A stretch of DNA of 64,000 bases from GCF_058153355.1 NZ_CM177019.1; one strand, 5' to 3'. Numbered from the stretch's first letter, positions 45,379 through 53,689 are shown. Notes: generated by a model not told the origin, from the sequence alone. Made by a program: numbers and translations.

Positions 45379-46632
45379 ATGTCGGGATCCAACACAGCAA
45401 TCAGCCGTCGTCGTTTACTGCAAGGCGCGGGTGCCATGTGGCTATTGAGCGTAAGTCAGGTCAGTCTGGCTGCGGTCAGCCAGGTCGTGGCGGTGCGCGT
45501 CTGGCCTGCGTCCAGCTACACCCGTGTGACGGTAGAATCTAATCGTCAGCTGAAATATAAGCAGTTCGCGTTGAGTAACCCTGAACGCGTGGTGGTGGAT
45601 ATCGAAGATGTAAACCTGAACTCAGTGCTCAAGGGGATGGCGGCACAAATTCGTGCTGATGACCCGTTCATCAAGTCGGCGCGCGTCGGGCAGTTTGACC
45701 CGCAAACCGTGCGGATGGTTTTTGAGTTAAAGCAAAACGTAAAACCGCAGCTGTTTGCCCTTGCTCCGGTCGCCGGGTTTAAAGAGCGTCTGGTGATGGA
45801 TCTCTATCCTGCCAATGCTCAGGACATGCAGGACCCGCTGCTGGCGCTGCTGGAGGATTACAATAAAGGCGATCTCGAAAAGCAGGTGCCGCCTGCGCAG
45901 AGTGGCCCGCAGCCAGGCAAAGCAGGGCGCGATCGTCCGATTGTCATTATGCTTGACCCTGGCCATGGCGGCGAAGACTCCGGTGCGGTGGGGAAATACA
46001 AAACGCGTGAAAAAGACGTGGTATTGCAAATTGCCCGCCGTTTGCGCTCTCTGATTGAGAAAGAGGGCAATATGAAAGTTTACATGACCCGTAATGAAGA
46101 CATCTTCATTCCGTTGCAAGTGCGCGTAGCAAAAGCACAGAAACAGCGTGCTGACTTGTTTGTCTCTATTCATGCCGATGCCTTTACCAGTCGCCAGCCG
46201 AGCGGTTCCTCTGTGTTTGCGCTCTCTACCAAAGGTGCAACCAGTACCGCGGCAAAATATCTGGCGCAAACTCAGAACGCCTCGGACTTGATTGGTGGCG
46301 TGAGTAAGAGCGGCGACCGTTATGTCGACCATACTATGTTCGATATGGTGCAGTCGCTGACCATTGCCGACAGTCTGAAGTTTGGTAAAGCTGTGTTGAA
46401 TAAGCTCGGTAAAATCAACAAGCTGCATAAAAATCAGGTTGAACAAGCCGGGTTTGCCGTGCTGAAAGCGCCTGATATACCCTCCATTTTGGTCGAAACG
46501 GCGTTTATCAGTAACGTTGAGGAAGAACGTAAACTGAAAACGGCAACCTTCCAGCAGGAAGTTGCGGAATCAATCCTCGCAGGGATAAAAGCGTATTTTG
46601 CCGATGGGGCGACGCTGGCGAGAAGGGGATAA
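45379..46632 (+). CDS. amiC: N-acetylmuramoyl-L-alanine amidase AmiC (Tat signal)
   Basis: [23 protein letters not shown]… twin-arginine signal; amidase_3 domain. Confidence 0.92.
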
Positions 46633-46804
46633 TGTTTTTATTTATTCAATGAATTTATATTTCGTTGAATAGATAATATTTACCTGAATATTAGACGTTG
46701 GTTTTGTGACTGATGTCGAATATTTGAATGTCGGCTTGAAAAATAAGCCGACCATCTCTTTAATTAAGCACAATTCCGTGTAATGTATATGCATTAGTTA
46801 ATCA

Positions 46805-46879
46805 TCTTGTAACTGTTAAATCAGGCAAGGCAATGTTTGAAGTAATTATTACTTCTGACGTGCCTTGCCTTTTTTTTTG
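46805..46879 (+). promoter_or_regulatory. Putative RAT (ribonucleic antiterminator)-like element overlapping an intrinsic terminator, leader of the accessory PTS operon
   Basis: TCTTGTAACTGTTAAATCAGGCAAGGC resembles BglG/LicT RAT consensus (GGATTGTTACTG…GCAGGCAAAACC); overlapping hairpin AGGCAAGGCA…TGCCTTGCCT followed by T9. Confidence 0.55.
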
Positions 46880-46889
46880 GAGCTATGGA

Positions 46890-47714
46890 ATGATCATCGA
46901 AAAAGTCATGAACAATAATTGTGTACAGGCATCGATGAATGGACAGGAGGTTATCATTTCTGGGCCTGGCGTCGGTTACAACAAAAAATATGGAATGTCG
47001 GTCCCTGAGCATCCGGCTAACCGGATTTTTTATGTCAGAAATGAACAAAAAAATAAACTCTACAAATTGATTGAACATGTGGATATTGAGTATGTTTTTG
47101 TTGCCGAAAAAATAGTGCAATATGCGGAGAACAATCTCGAAAAAAATCTCAATCCATCGCTACTATTGATTCTTGCTGATCATATTTCGAATGCAATATC
47201 CCGAGTCGCTTCAGGCATACAAATTAATAATGTTTTCCTTGATGAAATCAAAGCGTTGTACAAAGCAGAGTATGCGATAAGTCGCGATGCATTAACTATC
47301 ATTAATGAGCAATTCAGCGTTCAACTTCCTGATGATGAGATTGGTTTTATAGCATTGCATATTTTAAATAATTATGAAAATTCAGTTGATTATGAATCAG
47401 TACGGATTATTGAGTTGTCGCAAATAATCACGGGGCTTATTGAAGTTGTTTATAACAGAAAGGTGGACAGAAGTTCATTTAATTATTCCAGGTTCATGAT
47501 ACACCTTAAATATTTTTCAAGTCGCGTATTATGCAATGAAAAAATAAAACAGAAAGATATTGGTGATCTCTATGAACAGTTTCTTGAGAAAGACATTCTG
47601 TTACAGCGCGCAATTCATGAAATTGAAAGGTATTTGTACGCCACTTTTAAATATGAATTGATTTTGGAAGAAAAACTATATCTCTCTATTCGCACCAAAG
47701 TATTAATGGACTAA
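46890..47714 (+). CDS. BglG/LicT-family transcription antiterminator (CAT RNA-binding domain + PRD domains)
   Basis: ORF 46833..47714; start placed at ATG 46890 with GGAG 8 nt upstream; N-terminal CAT-like region (MIIEKVMNNNCVQASMNGQEVIISGPGVGY…) and PRD-like segments; AT-rich. Confidence 0.75.
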   Translation: MIIEKVMNNNCVQASMNGQEVIISGPGVGYNKKYGMSVPEHPANRIFYVRNEQKNKLYKLIEHVDIEYVFVAEKIVQYAENNLEKNLNPSLLLILADHISNAISRVASGIQINNVFLDEIKALYKAEYAISRDALTIINEQFSVQLPDDEIGFIALHILNNYENSVDYESVRIIELSQIITGLIEVVYNRKVDRSSFNYSRFMIHLKYFSSRVLCNEKIKQKDIGDLYEQFLEKDILLQRAIHEIERYLYATFKYELILEEKLYLSIRTKVLMD

Positions 47715-47745
47715 TTATATATAACATTTATATGAGATAACCCGC

Positions 47746-49326
47746 ATGAAACAAAAGAAAGCCTGGAGTTTTTTTCAGAGCCTGGGAAAGGCATTTATGT
47801 ATCCCATCGCTCTGCTAAGTGTATGTGGCATGATGTTAGGGCTAGGAAGTGGTTTAGCCAGCGATGATATGGCAAAATTAATTCCACTACTGGCTATTCC
47901 CGTAATTAAAACCATTCTTGATTTTATTGTTAGCCTTGGTTTGTTTGCCTTTGTCAATTTACCTGTATTGTTTGCGATAGCTATACCTCTGGGGTTATTA
48001 AAAGAGAAAGAGGATAAAGCCTATGGCGCTTTTTCTGGCTTAATTGGTTTCATGGCGATGCATCTGGGAACGAACTTTTATCTTAAACAACATGACTTAT
48101 TGGTCGCTGCTGATCAAATGTCGACACATGGGCAAACCATTATTCTGGGAATCCAGTCCTACAATACCAGTGTGTTGGGTGGGATTATAGCAGGATTATT
48201 AGTCGCCAGTATGTATAAAAAGATCGTTAACTTACGTATTCCTGAATCATTAGGATTTTATAGTGGCCCACGCCTGGTGCCTATTATTACACTGATTGTG
48301 ATGAGCGGATTTGGTCTGATCATCCCTTTTATCTGGCCGCCATTTTTCAATCTTTTCATGCTCATTGGCCACTGGATTTCAACTTCCGGTCCTGTTGGCT
48401 ATTTTTTCTATGCAGTCGCCGAACGCGTGACGATACCTTTTGGTTTAAATCACCTGGTGACGTCAGTTTTCCGCTTTACCCCCATCGGCGGATCGGCAGT
48501 GATCGGCGGAGAAGAGTATTATGGCACCCTGAACATGTTTATGGCGTACGTCAAAGAGAATGCGGTCATTCCGCTGGATTTGGCGGGGAAAATGGAACAG
48601 GGCAAACTGATGATTCAGTATGGTCTGGCTGGTGCCGCGCTGGCGATGTATCGCACTGCTCATGCTCAAAACAGAAAAGCTATCAAAGCATTGCTTATTT
48701 CCGGGGTGCTTACAGTCATTATTGGCGGCGTCAGCGAACCGATTGAGTTTCTGTTCTTATTTGTCAGTCCACTGCTATTTGTCTTCCATGCTTTTATGAA
48801 TGGATTCGCCAACATGGTCTTGCCATATATGGGCGTGAAGATGGGATTTACTGGCGATCTGATTCAATTTATTAGCTTTGGCGTATTGCGTGGCACAAGA
48901 ACAGGTTGGCCAATAGCGGTGTGTGTCGAAGTGGCCTATTTCTTTATTTATTACTTTGTGTTCCGTTGGACTATTCTCAAATTTAACCTGATGACGGTAG
49001 GCCGTGAAGAGTCCAGTCCTGTCACGCTGAACGCTCATGAGGATACGGCTATAGCGGATATCCCAACGCTTGATAAATCAGAGCTGCAAGCAGCGGAGCA
49101 GATGGTTAAGGCACTTGGTGGTAAAGAGAATATTAAATCCCTGGATAATTGCGTAACTCGTTTACGTTTAACAATCGCAGATATGGGATTGATTGACGAG
49201 GCAGCAATAAAAAGAGCTGGCGGAATTGCGGTTGTTAAACTTGATCAAAATACCCTACAAGTCATTATCGGTACTAAAGTCATCGCCTTGCGTCGGGATA
49301 TGGATAACTACATGGGGATATGCTGA
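47746..49326 (+). CDS. PTS EIICB component, glucose/maltose (MalX-like) family
   Basis: 526-aa ORF, multi-TM EIIC followed by a C-terminal EIIB domain with phosphorylatable Cys motif (NCVTRLRL). Confidence 0.85.
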   Translation: MKQKKAWSFFQSLGKAFMYPIALLSVCGMMLGLGSGLASDDMAKLIPLLAIPVIKTILDFIVSLGLFAFVNLPVLFAIAIPLGLLKEKEDKAYGAFSGLIGFMAMHLGTNFYLKQHDLLVAADQMSTHGQTIILGIQSYNTSVLGGIIAGLLVASMYKKIVNLRIPESLGFYSGPRLVPIITLIVMSGFGLIIPFIWPPFFNLFMLIGHWISTSGPVGYFFYAVAERVTIPFGLNHLVTSVFRFTPIGGSAVIGGEEYYGTLNMFMAYVKENAVIPLDLAGKMEQGKLMIQYGLAGAALAMYRTAHAQNRKAIKALLISGVLTVIIGGVSEPIEFLFLFVSPLLFVFHAFMNGFANMVLPYMGVKMGFTGDLIQFISFGVLRGTRTGWPIAVCVEVAYFFIYYFVFRWTILKFNLMTVGREESSPVTLNAHEDTAIADIPTLDKSELQAAEQMVKALGGKENIKSLDNCVTRLRLTIADMGLIDEAAIKRAGGIAVVKLDQNTLQVIIGTKVIALRRDMDNYMGIC

Positions 49327-50501
49327 TGGATGTTTTTAATACTCCTATTTCCCGCAAAGGAACATATTGTACCCAATGGGACTTTTGCGAGGACAGATTT
49401 GGTGTAAAAGATGTATTACCATTCTCTATTTCAGATATGGATCTTCCGATACCGGAAGCTATCATCAGGGCATTAAGAAAACGTCTGGAACACCCGATTT
49501 TAGGGTACAGCCGTTGGCAGCATGATGACTATCTGAATGCGATAGTCAATTGGTATCATCAACAATATAAAACTGAAATCAAACCAGAATGGATCACCTA
49601 TAGCCCAAGCGTGATGTACTCCATTGCTAAAGCAATAGAGTTATTGACATCGCATGGTGATAATATTCTCGTTTTTACACCTGTCTATAATGCATTTTTT
49701 GATATAATTAAACATAGCGAGAGAAATATTCTGACAGCCTCTTTGATTATAAAAAATGAGGGGGGCTACGCTATCAATTGGCAAGATTTTGATCTTAAGA
49801 TTCAAAGCGCAAAGATGGTGTTATTATGTAATCCTCATAACCCGACAGGAACCGTCTGGTCGGAAGAAGAGCTGCATAAAATCGCTGCAAGCTGTGCAAG
49901 ACATAATGTCTGGTTATGTTCAGATGAAATTCACAGTGATTTTGTTTTTAATCGTAGCTTTACATCTGCGCTTAAAATAAAAAAAGAAAAAGTAGTGGTG
50001 TTTAATTCGATATCGAAGACATTTAATGTTCCTGCGCTAACAGGATCGTATATGATTTCAACTGACGATAATTTTAATCATAAGTTCAGAACGATATCAA
50101 GATATCGCGATTTTGTAAACTCCCCATCCGTACTGAATATAATTGCAACTATTATTGCCTATAACGAATGTGAGGGATGGTTAACGTCATTAAAGGCACA
50201 TATTGCCTCTAACATTCAATTCACCCAGCAGTATCTGAACGAAAATACTCCAGAATTGATCGTAAGGCCAGCTGATGGTTGCTATTTTTCGTGGATAGAT
50301 TGCTCTGCTATTGGTTATCCCTTTGATGAATTCTACAGTCGATTAATTCATGAAGGCAAAGTGGGCATTATGGCGGGGAATGTCTATGGAACGGAGGGGG
50401 AGGGCTACCTTCGTCTGAACCTGGCCTGCGGTCGAGAAAAATTATATATGGGGCTTACGCGTCTTGCGAGTGTAATTAAAAATATTAATCAAGGAAAATA
50501 A
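49320..50501 (+). CDS. PLP-dependent C-S lyase / aminotransferase, MalY/PatB-like paralog
   Basis: Conserved blocks shared with MalY: TYCTQWDF, LPFSISDMD, GYSRW, CNPHNPTG, SDEIH, NSISKTFNVPALTG (PLP lysine). Confidence 0.8.
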   Translation: MLMDVFNTPISRKGTYCTQWDFCEDRFGVKDVLPFSISDMDLPIPEAIIRALRKRLEHPILGYSRWQHDDYLNAIVNWYHQQYKTEIKPEWITYSPSVMYSIAKAIELLTSHGDNILVFTPVYNAFFDIIKHSERNILTASLIIKNEGGYAINWQDFDLKIQSAKMVLLCNPHNPTGTVWSEEELHKIAASCARHNVWLCSDEIHSDFVFNRSFTSALKIKKEKVVVFNSISKTFNVPALTGSYMISTDDNFNHKFRTISRYRDFVNSPSVLNIIATIIAYNECEGWLTSLKAHIASNIQFTQQYLNENTPELIVRPADGCYFSWIDCSAIGYPFDEFYSRLIHEGKVGIMAGNVYGTEGEGYLRLNLACGREKLYMGLTRLASVIKNINQGK

Positions 50502-50503
50502 AA

Positions 50504-51100
50504 ATGAACAGCACGGATCTTATCCATCTCATTAAACATTTTATGCGTAACGAACATAAAGCAGTTGAAGAAGTTATTGATTCTCCCCTTTCGGAGGTCG
50601 CAAATTTAATTAAAGTATTACAGTCTTGTCAGGGGAAAGTTGTTTTTATTGGTGTCGGTAAGTCCGGTATTATTGCCCGAAAACTCGCCGCAACATTTGC
50701 CAGCACTGGAACTCCCTCGTTTTTTGTTCACGGTACTGAAGCCGTACACGGCGATCTTGGGATGGTGGCGAAAGATGATGTTGTTATTCTTATTTCAAAC
50801 AGTGGTGAGACGACAGAAATCCTGGCAACACTACCTAGTCTGAAAAAAATGGGTAATTATTTGATCTCCTTTACCCGCAGTCATCGCTCATCGCTTGCGA
50901 TAAGTTGTGATTTATCCGTTGAAATTCCCGTAAAAAGTGAGGCGGATAATTTAGGTTTAGCGCCGTCATGCTCATCAACAGTCGTTCTGGTTGTTGGTGA
51001 TGCGGTGGCGCTTGCGCTCTCCGAATTGAAAAAGTTTACTCGTGCTGATTTCGGCTTATATCATCCAGGAGGTGCGCTCGGTATTAAAGCAAACTCATAA
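50504..51100 (+). CDS. SIS-domain sugar-phosphate isomerase-like protein (KdsD/GutQ-like SIS domain, no CBS domains)
   Basis: VVFIGVGKSGIIARKLAATFASTGTPSFFVHGTEAVHGDLGMV closely resembles the KdsD/GutQ SIS core; only 198 aa. Confidence 0.75.
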   Translation: MNSTDLIHLIKHFMRNEHKAVEEVIDSPLSEVANLIKVLQSCQGKVVFIGVGKSGIIARKLAATFASTGTPSFFVHGTEAVHGDLGMVAKDDVVILISNSGETTEILATLPSLKKMGNYLISFTRSHRSSLAISCDLSVEIPVKSEADNLGLAPSCSSTVVLVVGDAVALALSELKKFTRADFGLYHPGGALGIKANS

Positions 51101-51161
51101 TTTTAGAATATAAAACAGTAACCGGTCACGCCATCTTTTGGGGTGGCGTTCATTGATGTGA

Positions 51162-52118
51162 GTGTCAGCTATGAAAAACGTTCTGGTCACCGTTCCCAGC
51201 TTTTCAGCGCGTTGTGTTTCTGCCAGCAAGCTGCTAAGAGAAAATCATTTTAACCTTATTATCAAGAATAATGTGGAGCATCTGGTTAAATCAGAATCCA
51301 CAGTATTACGAGAATCTATTTGCGCAGTCATTGCCGGAAAAGATTGTTATCAAGCGGATACGTTATCGCGACTACCAGGAGTGAAAATAATATCGAGATT
51401 CGGGACAGGGATTGATAATATTGATCTTCATACGGCTCGACAATCAGGTATTGTGGTCAATAATGCTGTTGGGATTAATTCAAATGCAGTCGCGGAATTT
51501 ATCATTGGTCTTATTTTTGCGAGCATGAGAAATATCCCCGGTAGCTATCATGCAATGCAAAATGGTTATTGGGGCGAGTCGCATGGCTGCGAGTTACAAG
51601 GTAAACGTATTGGCCTGCTTGGCTATGGCAATATTGGCAAAACACTGGCGAAAAGGTTATCTGGTTTTGATGTTGAGCTTTTAGCTTTTGACAAACAACC
51701 CGATTTCCAGGCCGCAGGCAAAGATGGAGTTCAGTTCGTATCAATTGAAGATATCTTTATGCAGTCTCATGTCATCATCGTTCTTTTGCCATTTTCTCCG
51801 GAGCTGGAGAACTTCATTAGTCATAAATATTTGTCGATGATGCGCAATGGTGCTCTTATCATCAACGCCGCAAGGGGAAAGTTGCTGGATGAGGGTGCTT
51901 TACTTCAGGTAATTGAAGAACGAAATGTTTTTGCAGCACTGGATGTGTTTAGCTCTGAACCGCTAGCGCAATTTAGCCCATTGCTACATGCCAGGAATAT
52001 CATTACAACGCCGCATATTGCGGCCGCCACCGTTGAGTCATACCAGCAAACCGGGATATACGTTGCCAGGTCGATAATAGATTTCTTTGCAGGAAGGGAG
52101 ATAAAAAACGTGCTGTGA
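51162..52118 (+). CDS. D-isomer-specific 2-hydroxyacid dehydrogenase family protein (NAD-binding)
   Basis: 318-aa ORF with GLLGYGNIGKTLAKRL Rossmann motif, family catalytic His/Arg context. Confidence 0.8.
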   Translation: MSAMKNVLVTVPSFSARCVSASKLLRENHFNLIIKNNVEHLVKSESTVLRESICAVIAGKDCYQADTLSRLPGVKIISRFGTGIDNIDLHTARQSGIVVNNAVGINSNAVAEFIIGLIFASMRNIPGSYHAMQNGYWGESHGCELQGKRIGLLGYGNIGKTLAKRLSGFDVELLAFDKQPDFQAAGKDGVQFVSIEDIFMQSHVIIVLLPFSPELENFISHKYLSMMRNGALIINAARGKLLDEGALLQVIEERNVFAALDVFSSEPLAQFSPLLHARNIITTPHIAAATVESYQQTGIYVARSIIDFFAGREIKNVL

Positions 52119-52147
52119 GGTCAGCTAAGGAAGATTTCAGGTACAAA

Positions 52148-52182
52148 AAAACCGCAATCTGTGAAACACATTGCGGTTTATC
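52148..52182 (+). terminator. Putative terminator hairpin downstream of the accessory operon
   Basis: AACCGCAAT-…-ATTGCGGTT inverted repeat after the dehydrogenase stop; weak T-tract. Confidence 0.45.
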
Positions 52183-52196
52183 AGCATCATAAGTGT

Positions 52197-52273
<77 letters not shown>

Positions 52274-52306
52274 TCACCGTACTGCTTTACTTCATCAAAT
52301 TTTGAT

Positions 52307-52383
<77 letters not shown>

Positions 52384-52591
52384 TCCGTGGATGCGCACTA
52401 TACTCCGCTCGCGTTTTCATGCAACCTTTTTTTTACCCGGATCACGGATTTGGCATGATTTTGAGCAAAAACAAATCACTAAAGCCTGTTTTTTGTGCAA
52501 AATTTGCGTCAGGGAGAGGCTGCTCATTTCATTAAACGCGGCGGTTTGTTATCTTCATTGCGCCTTATTTTTTAAACTGAAGAAGAGAACA

Positions 52592-53689
52592 ATGAAAGGA
52601 CGTTGGGTAAAGTACCTTCTTATGGGCACGGTTGTGGCAATGCTTGCCGCCTGCTCTTCCAAACCAACCGATCGCGGACAGCAATATAAAGACGGGAAAT
52701 TTACCCAGCCTTTCTCTCTGGTAAACCAGCCAGATGCCGTTGGCGCGCCAATTAACGCCGGTGATTTTGCCGAGCAAATTAACCATATCCGTACTTCGTC
52801 ACCGCGTCTGTATGGCAACCAGAGTAATGTTTATAATGCGGTGCAGGAGTGGCTACGCGCAGGCGGTGATACCCGCAATATGCGTCAGTTCGGCATTGAC
52901 GCCTGGCAGATGGAAGGTGCCGACAACTATGGCAACGTGCAGTTTACGGGCTATTACACGCCTGTCATTCAGGCGCGCCATACCCGTCAGGGCGAGTTCC
53001 AGTATCCTATTTACCGTATGCCGCCAAAACGTGGTCGTCTGCCGTCTCGTGCGGAGATCTACGCGGGAGCATTGAGCGATAAATACATCCTCGCTTACAG
53101 CAACTCTCTGATGGATAACTTCATTATGGATGTGCAGGGTAGCGGGTATATCGATTTTGGTGATGGCAGTCCGCTTAACTTCTTCAGCTATGCCGGAAAG
53201 AATGGTCATGCCTATCGCAGTATTGGTAAGGTGCTGATTGACCGTGGCGAAGTGAAAAAAGAAGATATGTCGATGCAGGCGATTCGTCACTGGGGTGAAA
53301 CACACAGTGAAGCCGAGGTTCGCGAGCTGCTGGAACAGAACCCGTCTTTCGTCTTCTTTAAACCGCAATCTTTTGCTCCGGTGAAAGGGGCAAGTGCGGT
53401 GCCGCTGGTTGGTCGCGCTTCAGTTGCGTCCGATCGTTCCATTATCCCGCCTGGTACAACCTTACTGGCAGAAGTGCCGCTGCTGGATAATAACGGCAAA
53501 TTTAACGGTCAGTACGAACTGCGGCTGATGGTGGCGCTGGATGTCGGTGGTGCAATCAAAGGCCAACACTTCGATATTTATCAAGGTATCGGGCCGGAAG
53601 CCGGACACCGCGCAGGTTGGTACAACCACTATGGACGTGTTTGGGTGCTGAAAACCGCCCCGGGCGCAGGTAACGTCTTTAGCGGCTGA
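52592..53689 (+). CDS. mltA: Membrane-bound lytic murein transglycosylase A (lipoprotein)
   Basis: MKGRWVKYLLMGTVVAMLAACSS lipobox; 365 aa; the ORF-track N-terminal extension overlapping the tRNA is discounted. Confidence 0.92.
   Translation: MKGRWVKYLLMGTVVAMLAACSSKPTDRGQQYKDGKFTQPFSLVNQPDAVGAPINAGDFAEQINHIRTSSPRLYGNQSNVYNAVQEWLRAGGDTRNMRQFGIDAWQMEGADNYGNVQFTGYYTPVIQARHTRQGEFQYPIYRMPPKRGRLPSRAEIYAGALSDKYILAYSNSLMDNFIMDVQGSGYIDFGDGSPLNFFSYAGKNGHAYRSIGKVLIDRGEVKKEDMSMQAIRHWGETHSEAEVRELLEQNPSFVFFKPQSFAPVKGASAVPLVGRASVASDRSIIPPGTTLLAEVPLLDNNGKFNGQYELRLMVALDVGGAIKGQHFDIYQGIGPEAGHRAGWYNHYGRVWVLKTAPGAGNVFSG

Follow-up and report, generated by a model that had tools for sequence, protein, structure and literature searches.

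An antitermination-controlled phosphotransferase operon between amiC and the initiator tRNA genes, probably the c3405-c3410 module of the Escherichia metV island

We analysed a 64,000-nucleotide stretch of Escherichia DNA (the window) in which an AT-rich insert of 5.56 kb runs from the amiC stop codon to the first initiator tRNA-Met gene and encodes, on one strand, a BglG/LicT-type transcription antiterminator, an EIICB protein of the phosphotransferase system (PTS), a MalY-like enzyme dependent on pyridoxal phosphate (PLP), a short sugar isomerase (SIS) protein and a D-2-hydroxyacid dehydrogenase (Table 1). With a probability that we put at about 80%, this segment is the Escherichia accessory PTS operon c3405-c3410, the module of the metV island that lies next to amiC, and works as proposed below. 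The operon is under the control of a ribonucleic antiterminator (RAT) and its cognate type of protein, and the RAT/terminator switch in its leader is shown here. The operon itself is already published.

The gene order dehydrogenase-SIS-MalY-EIIC-PRD-amiC, in which PRD stands for the antiterminator with its PTS regulation domains, is identical in CFT073, where the counterpart genes lie at 3249590-3254819, and in UTI89. CFT073 c3405-c3410 shares with the window the five genes, their order, the amiC-adjacent site and DNA that is 90-97% identical, and is thus the same operon; the two SIS proteins share 97% identity, and the one from CFT073 is itself 100% identical to the protein of PDB entries 5UQI and 5VHU. 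Unlike the window, which carries the PTS module alone, B2 strains such as CFT073 and UTI89 have a type VI secretion system cluster that separates the dehydrogenase gene from metV. The corresponding pathogenicity island (PAI), PAI-metV, extends over c3385-c3410, and c3406, the SIS gene, is annotated as a phosphosugar isomerase. PAI-CFT073-metV has been described to include c3405-c3410 as a 'PTS system, maltose/glucose specific' (Bryant et al., PMC2831201), and c3406 is cited in a review as an arabinose-5-phosphate isomerase (API) tied to the supply of lipopolysaccharide (LPS) precursors (PMC4470864). The novelty implied by an earlier reading of the DNA (the sequence-only reading) is therefore lost: the cluster is a published one, the structure of its SIS protein is solved and 31% of the complete genomes of E. 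coli carry the cluster. That reading had named a known operon with an assigned substrate as what would refute it; the operon proves to be described, but in the literature on c3405-c3410 and its orthologues we found no paper that assigns a substrate. A study by Mosberg et al. in 2011 (J Bacteriol 193:2981) reportedly has c3406 as its subject, and is said to have found A5P isomerase activity in vitro (arabinose-5-phosphate, A5P, to ribulose-5-phosphate, Ru5P) and no attenuation of the single deletion. Lloyd et al. in 2009 reportedly traced the fitness defect of a PAI-metV deletion in the mouse urinary tract to c3405-10.

The borders of the segment are sharp. When the window is aligned to K-12, homology is lost at 46633, just past the amiC stop, and regained at 52196, by the 3' end of tRNA-Met, so that the limits set by the sequence-only reading are exact; and, as that reading stated, K-12 lacks the segment, its amiC-metV spacer measuring only 73 bp where the window carries the island. 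The island thus swaps out the spacer cleanly beside the tRNA 3' end. Its five intact open reading frames (ORFs) occupy the whole interval in tight packing: the EIICB stop and the MalY start overlap (TGATG) and the other gaps measure 2, 31 and 70 nt, the last of these between the SIS and dehydrogenase genes. The same five genes are annotated by RefSeq in a 99.7%-identical genome (H1). Base composition sets the segment apart from its surroundings, with a GC content of 40.2% vs 51-53% in the flanks and third-position GC (GC3) of 34-45% in the island genes vs 55-58%, a comparison that bears out the AT-richness noted in the sequence-only reading. For family assignment we relied on NCBIfam models with curated equivalog cutoffs; the cutoff was passed by the PatB model alone, the other four proteins being members of their families and not equivalogs of named enzymes. 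ORFs, RefSeq annotation and NCBIfam together uphold the five same-strand genes of the sequence-only reading, and the absence of an EIIA, which it had also remarked, holds for the island: translations and NCBIfam models reveal none among the five ORFs.

The leader carries a RAT hairpin that has 8 nt in common with the 5' arm of an intrinsic terminator, so that the two structures are mutually exclusive, and an autoregulated circuit follows from the position of the RAT in front of the antiterminator gene. The fold of 46780-46885 reaches -32.7 kcal/mol (z = -4.66), a stability equalled by none of 200 shuffled sequences. By itself the RAT hairpin is weak (-6.3 kcal/mol, vs -28.2 kcal/mol for an 82-nt RAT-terminator segment), as expected of an element that can rival the terminator only once protein is bound. 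To this we add a comparison of the window with two classical RATs and with the corresponding leaders in Citrobacter, Enterobacter and Clostridioides difficile. The RAT core TTGT.AC...GGCAA is invariant in Escherichia, Citrobacter, Enterobacter and four C. difficile RATs, and all six base pairs tested form in each of the nine aligned sequences. Compensatory changes are found both in the RAT stem, in Enterobacter (CTG/CAG to CTA/TAG), and in the terminator arms, in Citrobacter (G/C to A/T). The antiterminator control that the sequence-only reading had proposed is therefore confirmed, with a RAT that overlaps the terminator and is conserved in other genera. Rfam, which has no curated RAT family to match, returned only tRNAs on 46400-52600. 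Separately, a candidate CRP-like site (TGTGA-N6-TCGAA, 46705-46720) is visible in the leader, ahead of the hairpin that follows amiC.

The antiterminator has its best NCBIfam match in LicT (E = 1.5e-67; 227.7 bits, below the equivalog cutoff of 300) and remains below the cutoffs of the other named models (GlcT, 178.6 bits against 320; BglG, 105.3 against 322). Its residues 2-166 align to the co-antiterminator (CAT)-PRD1 structure 6TWR and residues 57-269 to the LicT PRD1-PRD2 structure 1TLV, and the Pfam domains CAT_RBD and PRD are on record for the Citrobacter orthologue, which is 78% identical. Three of the four regulatory histidines are kept, His98, His157 and His205 being invariant and matching LicT His100, His159 and His207. 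The EIICB downstream aligns over its full length to the MalX model TIGR02004 (E = 5.7e-161; 536.6 bits, below the cutoff of 632.2); its identity is 42% with K-12 MalX and 68% with C. difficile CD3030. An EIIB motif with the phosphorylatable cysteine (NCVTRLR) and an EIIC motif (GGVSEPIEF) can be read in its translation, and PTS_EIIC and PTS_EIIB domains are on record for its orthologues. In the orthologous Firmicute loci a glucose-class EIIA (PTS_EIIA_1) adjoins the cluster.

Three enzymes follow. The MalY-like protein exceeds the cutoff of TIGR04350 (368.2 bits against 340), has E. coli MalY (1D2F, 1.1e-85) as its top PDB match and is 36% identical to K-12 MalY; K231, D200, N172, Y121 and R363, which include the SxSK lysine that binds PLP and the carboxylate-binding arginine, are invariant among its orthologues. 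The SIS protein matches the KdsD model with E = 4e-58 in a region confined to the SIS domain (positions 36-201 of the 328 in the profile), and stops at the point at which the profile's CBS pair would start; it scores 191.8 bits against TIGR00393, below the cutoff of 203.7, matches the KdsD SIS domain of PDB 2XHZ with E = 1.1e-40 and belongs to an SIS-only subgroup that is common in Firmicutes. The dehydrogenase has the catalytic and NAD-binding domains of the D-isomer-specific 2-hydroxyacid dehydrogenases, with GxGxxG and the Arg/Glu/His triad; it matches the NCBIfam phosphoglycerate dehydrogenase (PGDH) and glyoxylate reductase models with E = 1e-62 to 1e-48, and PGDH structures in PDB, with 1WWK as the top match (2.5e-48). 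Its scores stay under the cutoffs (PGDH, 210 bits against 454; GhrB, 132 against 492; PdxB, 103 against 434), and it is thus no SerA, PdxB or GhrB equivalog; the motifs GYGNIG, NAARG and TPHIA are readable in its translation, and the domains 2-Hacid_dh and 2-Hacid_dh_C are on record for the Citrobacter orthologue. Rare in-frame fusions of the MalY-like and SIS proteins were also met in E. coli and Shigella (P0122-P0130), in which a MalY-like part (residues 1-394) is followed by the whole of the SIS isomerase (395-592). The MalY gene of CFSAN027350 is without its stop codon and reads on for 11 codons into the SIS gene.

A megablast search detected the segment in 1688 of the 5426 complete E. coli genomes (31%), UTI89, ST131 and CFT073 among them; the allele of the window is rarer, only 94 of the 1688 carriers reaching at least 99% identity. 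The core of four genes (antiterminator, EIICB, MalY and SIS) occurs also in Citrobacter, Enterobacter, C. difficile and other gut Firmicutes, all five genes being present in Citrobacter, at a different chromosomal site, and the core without the dehydrogenase in Enterobacter. We surveyed synteny by a MalY alignment scan with one genome per species, followed by tblastn of the five window proteins on 80 loci, which are the most similar ones, so that the counts lean toward close relatives. MalY replaced the SIS protein as the anchor because Firmicute SIS-only homologues often lie in unrelated contexts (a PfkB kinase with a major facilitator superfamily transporter; a galactitol-type PTS with aldolases). 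A Glc-family EIICB stands directly upstream of the MalY homologue at 74 of the 80 loci, which span Proteobacteria, Firmicutes, Fusobacteria and Spirochaetes. These fall into two types. Ten loci (type A) have the antiterminator and the short SIS protein, with an EIICB 61-97% identical to that of the window, and belong to Escherichia, Citrobacter, Enterobacter, Enterococcus termitis, Clostridium, C. difficile, Massilicoli and Solobacterium; the other 64 (type B) have only an EIICB, 40-47% identical, and MalY, which is the pattern of K-12 malXY. Among type A loci the dehydrogenase is confined to the Escherichia locus and two Citrobacter loci and is an Escherichia/Citrobacter addition to the core. 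No glycoside hydrolase was found in any type A locus examined. As a separate observation, PatB/MalY homologues in Granulicatella (L011) and Clostridium intestinale (L014) share operons with lactose/cellobiose-type or fructose-type PTS genes and with M20, M24 or M42 peptidases, a hint that conjugates of sugars with peptides or amino acids may more generally be taken up by the PTS.

Three known systems bear comparison with the operon. C. difficile CD3031-CD3027 has the antiterminator, the malX-like EIICB, malY and the phosphosugar isomerase in the same order (identity 68% for EIICB, about 50% for MalY, 52% for SIS and 36-38% for the antiterminator) and the same type of RAT; unlike the window, it has its own EIIA-Glc, lacks the dehydrogenase, keeps the fourth PRD histidine and carries four tandem RAT-terminator units that stand between the antiterminator and EIICB genes rather than upstream of the antiterminator. 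These units, near-identical and about 106 nt each, lie between CD3031 and CD3030 (L010, 4990-5435), and such a serial antitermination arrangement before an EIICB gene is unusual. K-12 malI-malX-malY resembles the window in its Glc-family EIICB followed by a PatB/MalY PLP enzyme, in the lack of an EIIA and in having no known natural substrate, but is governed by the LacI-type repressor MalI without antitermination and has neither the SIS isomerase nor the dehydrogenase, and the two shared proteins are only 42% and 36% identical. The E. coli bglG-bglF-bglB and B. subtilis licT-bglPH and glcT-ptsG systems share the CAT-PRD1-PRD2 regulator, the RAT overlapping a terminator and a Glc-family EII, and in E. 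coli bgl the RAT is upstream of the regulator gene, as in the window. Those operons, however, add a phospho-beta-glucosidase or have the transporter only, whereas that of the window adds a PLP lyase, an isomerase and a dehydrogenase.

Transcription from a putative leader promoter most likely halts at the terminator unless the antiterminator, which is of the LicT/BglG type, binds and stabilises the weak RAT and so lifts termination. By analogy with the same family, an idle EIICB would phosphorylate PRD1 at His98 and His157, which would switch the antiterminator off when substrate is lacking, and HPr would phosphorylate His205 in PRD2 and thereby impose carbon-catabolite control. The MalX-like EIICB would import and phosphorylate a substrate of glucopyranoside type with the help of the housekeeping EIIA-Glc (Crr); we propose Crr because the operon encodes no EIIA, and the glucose-class EIIA carried near the Firmicute type A loci supports its use in E. 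coli. Since the operon also lacks a phospho-glycosidase, the MalY/PatB enzyme is proposed to process an amino-acid moiety, which it might remove from the phosphorylated substrate by beta-elimination to leave pyruvate, ammonia and a phosphosugar. The SIS enzyme could then convert the aldose phosphate to a ketose phosphate and the dehydrogenase could handle a 2-oxo or 2-hydroxy acid side product. The preferred reading thus suggests a sugar bearing an amino-acid moiety as the substrate, and the functional coupling seen in the EIICB-MalY pairing, in the type A core and in the MalY-SIS fusions speaks for the scheme as a whole. D-glucosaminate (by the logic of an aminotransferase and a 2-keto-6-phosphogluconate reductase), ethers of the N-acetylmuramic acid type (with a MurQ-like SIS), Amadori compounds (with an FrlB-like SIS) and retro-aldol release of A5P from an amino-heptonate were also considered as substrates and not adopted, for lack of evidence.

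Several observations weigh against this proposal. At the position of LicT His269 the Escherichia and Citrobacter antiterminators have an arginine (residue 268, in PRD2; window 47691-47693) where the Enterobacter and C. difficile orthologues keep the histidine, so that control by HPr may differ from that of LicT. A consensus scan of the plus strand of the leader found no sigma-70 promoter. The API activity has no obvious fit with a hexose-type EIICB. Finally, the MalY proteins of K-12 and C. difficile are documented only as cystathionine/cysteine beta-lyases (PMC6143707), and the MalY-like enzyme may therefore have no sugar-linked substrate at all. The main alternative, which we consider unlikely, is that the operon is a second semi-cryptic glucose/maltose PTS like malXY, with an EIICB that imports an ordinary sugar, the MalY-like enzyme at work in sulfur amino-acid metabolism (as a cysteine or cystathionine beta-lyase) or in regulation and the SIS protein and dehydrogenase as metabolic passengers. 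The nearest characterised relatives are indeed MalX and MalY (42% and 36%), the best NCBIfam models are MalX and PatB, and the C. difficile orthologue has been called a 'putative glucose-maltose PTS' with a MalY that is a cysteine desulfhydrase in vitro (PMC6143707). Yet the four-gene core is intact across two phyla with an EIICB that is 61-78% identical, and it comes with its own substrate-type antiterminator, with translational coupling and with an occasional MalY-SIS fusion, none of which would be expected for unrelated passengers; moreover, the EIICB of the window stays under the MalX equivalog cutoff.

The SIS protein invites a further explanation, in which the operon would mainly supply arabinose-5-phosphate for Kdo, and hence LPS or capsule, as a kpsF-like virulence accessory, which would explain the uropathogenic link. 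Its best matches are KdsD, KpsF and GutQ, and the review cited above (PMC4470864) connects the API c3406 to LPS precursors. We hold this role to be very improbable, since the same SIS gene and cluster are found in Gram-positives that have no Kdo (C. difficile, Enterococcus termitis, Clostridium, Solobacterium and Massilicoli) and the gene is embedded in a PTS operon, not in a capsule locus; the deletion of c3406, which reportedly caused no attenuation (Mosberg 2011), points the same way. Even less credible is a recent integrative island captured at metV by a site-specific integrase. It would account for the position beside the tRNA-Met 3' end, for the AT-richness and for the five Citrobacter genes at another locus, but the island has no integrase gene and no spare coding space for one, and a search of its borders for flanking direct repeats or a partial tRNA copy gave none, as the sequence-only reading had already seen for integrase and repeats. 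The same site is moreover occupied in a divergent Escherichia genome, E69 (amiC 91-93% identical), and the alleles of different E. coli lineages are only 87-97% identical while their flanks are 97.6-98.7% identical. The immediate flanks in the window are unusually diverged themselves. As a whole the pattern fits old residence and exchange by homologous recombination instead.

The history of the alleles can be followed along the segment. Between UTI89 and CFSAN027350 the divergence is concentrated from the leader to malY (87-92% identity), the SIS and dehydrogenase genes being 96-97% identical within flanks at 97.6-98.7%; the allele of the window is a mosaic unlike this pattern. Between about 43 and 56 kb the window is 92-96% identical to K-12, below the background of 97-99%, and the island flanks are thus a locally diverged tract relative to K-12. 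The amiC gene of the window (45379-46632) is 90-95% identical to that of 5333 of 5425 E. coli genomes and at least 99% identical to only 18. The H1 copy, 99.9% identical to it, encodes the protein accession WP_000016907.1, which is shared with UTI89 and CFSAN027350; since the three copies encode one accession, the approximately 86 amiC substitutions are all synonymous. The lack of integrase and repeats, the mosaic alleles, the same site in E69 and the diverged flanks point to long residence in Escherichia, and so favour the 'old, stabilised island' of the sequence-only reading; they also point to alleles being exchanged, and probably lost, by homologous recombination in the flanks and not by recent site-specific insertion.

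A bolder extension of the sugar-amino-acid proposal, which we regard as a tentative and improbable one, is that the EIICB-PatB/MalY pairing marks an undescribed catabolism of glycoconjugates, in which phosphorylated O- or S-glycosyl serine or cysteine would be deglycosylated by PLP-dependent beta-elimination instead of hydrolysis; the substrate could be a remnant of host or microbial glycoproteins. If this were true, the SIS enzyme of type A loci, with the dehydrogenase in Escherichia, would funnel the phosphosugar and the oxo-acid into central metabolism, and the orphan malXY genes of K-12 would gain a function too. Whatever its substrate, the operon is one of the more frequent accessory modules of E. 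coli metabolism, found in about one third of complete genomes and in the extraintestinal pathogenic lineages that were sampled (UTI89, CFT073, ST131), and in biofilm and in vivo data sets few PTS operons are regulated as strongly as its C. difficile orthologue. Identification of the substrate would explain a nutrient niche common to two important pathogens from the gut, and would probably also reveal what K-12 malXY does. To the published operon the present analysis adds a verified RAT, the split of EIICB-MalY clusters into types A and B and evidence for old, recombination-driven inheritance.

Table 1. Features of the amiC-tRNA-Met interval, in window coordinates
Feature	Position	Strand	Basis
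Whole accessory segment, PTS module of the metV island	46633..52196	+	K-12 homology breaks, GC, E. coli occurrence
Hairpin GTCGGCTT-GAAAAAT-AAGCCGAC	46730..46752	+	downstream of amiC; terminator-like scan; T tail weak
RAT hairpin UCUUGUAACUGUUAAAUCAGGCAAGG	46805..46830	+	conserved core, pairing, compensatory change
Intrinsic terminator	46823..46879	+	arms 46823-46832 and 46861-46870, then T9 run; inverted repeat I2
BglG/LicT-type transcription antiterminator, 274 aa, CAT + PRD1 + PRD2	46890..47714	+	NCBIfam, LicT structures
PTS EIICB, glucose/maltose family, 526 aa, without EIIA domain	47746..49326	+	MalX models
PatB/MalY-family PLP-dependent enzyme, beta C-S lyase fold, 391 aa	49326..50501	+	NCBIfam, PDB
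SIS-only KdsD-like sugar-phosphate isomerase, 198 aa, without CBS pair	50504..51100	+	c3406 orthologue
NAD-dependent D-2-hydroxyacid dehydrogenase, PGDH-like, without ACT domain, 315 aa	51171..52118	+	NCBIfam, PDB
Hairpin AAACCGCAATCTGT/ACACATTGCGGTTT	52149..52179	.	between dehydrogenase stop and tRNA; inverted repeat I5; flanked by A7 run and TTT
Two tandem initiator tRNA-Met genes, right border of the island	52197..52383	-	ARAGORN and Rfam

The remaining elements of the interval are minor. Of its two outer hairpins, the one downstream of amiC is a possible amiC terminator and the one between the dehydrogenase gene and the tRNA genes is probably a bidirectional terminator, to judge from their structure and position. 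A third hairpin, devoid of a T tract (ACGCCA-N10-TGGCGT, 51125-51146), lies within the gap between the SIS and dehydrogenase genes, and may serve for processing or attenuation at the junction at which the dehydrogenase gene, specific to Escherichia and Citrobacter, joined the operon. At the right border the window has two initiator tRNA-Met(CAU) genes on the minus strand (52197-52273 and 52307-52383), compared with three in K-12 (metZ, metW and metV) and three in H1; the window is thus short of one 110-bp tRNA repeat unit, through either unequal recombination or assembly collapse. Finally, the GC content of the entire window (48.8%) is under the 51-53% of the 10-kb island flanks, and other AT-rich accessory segments therefore probably lie elsewhere in the window.

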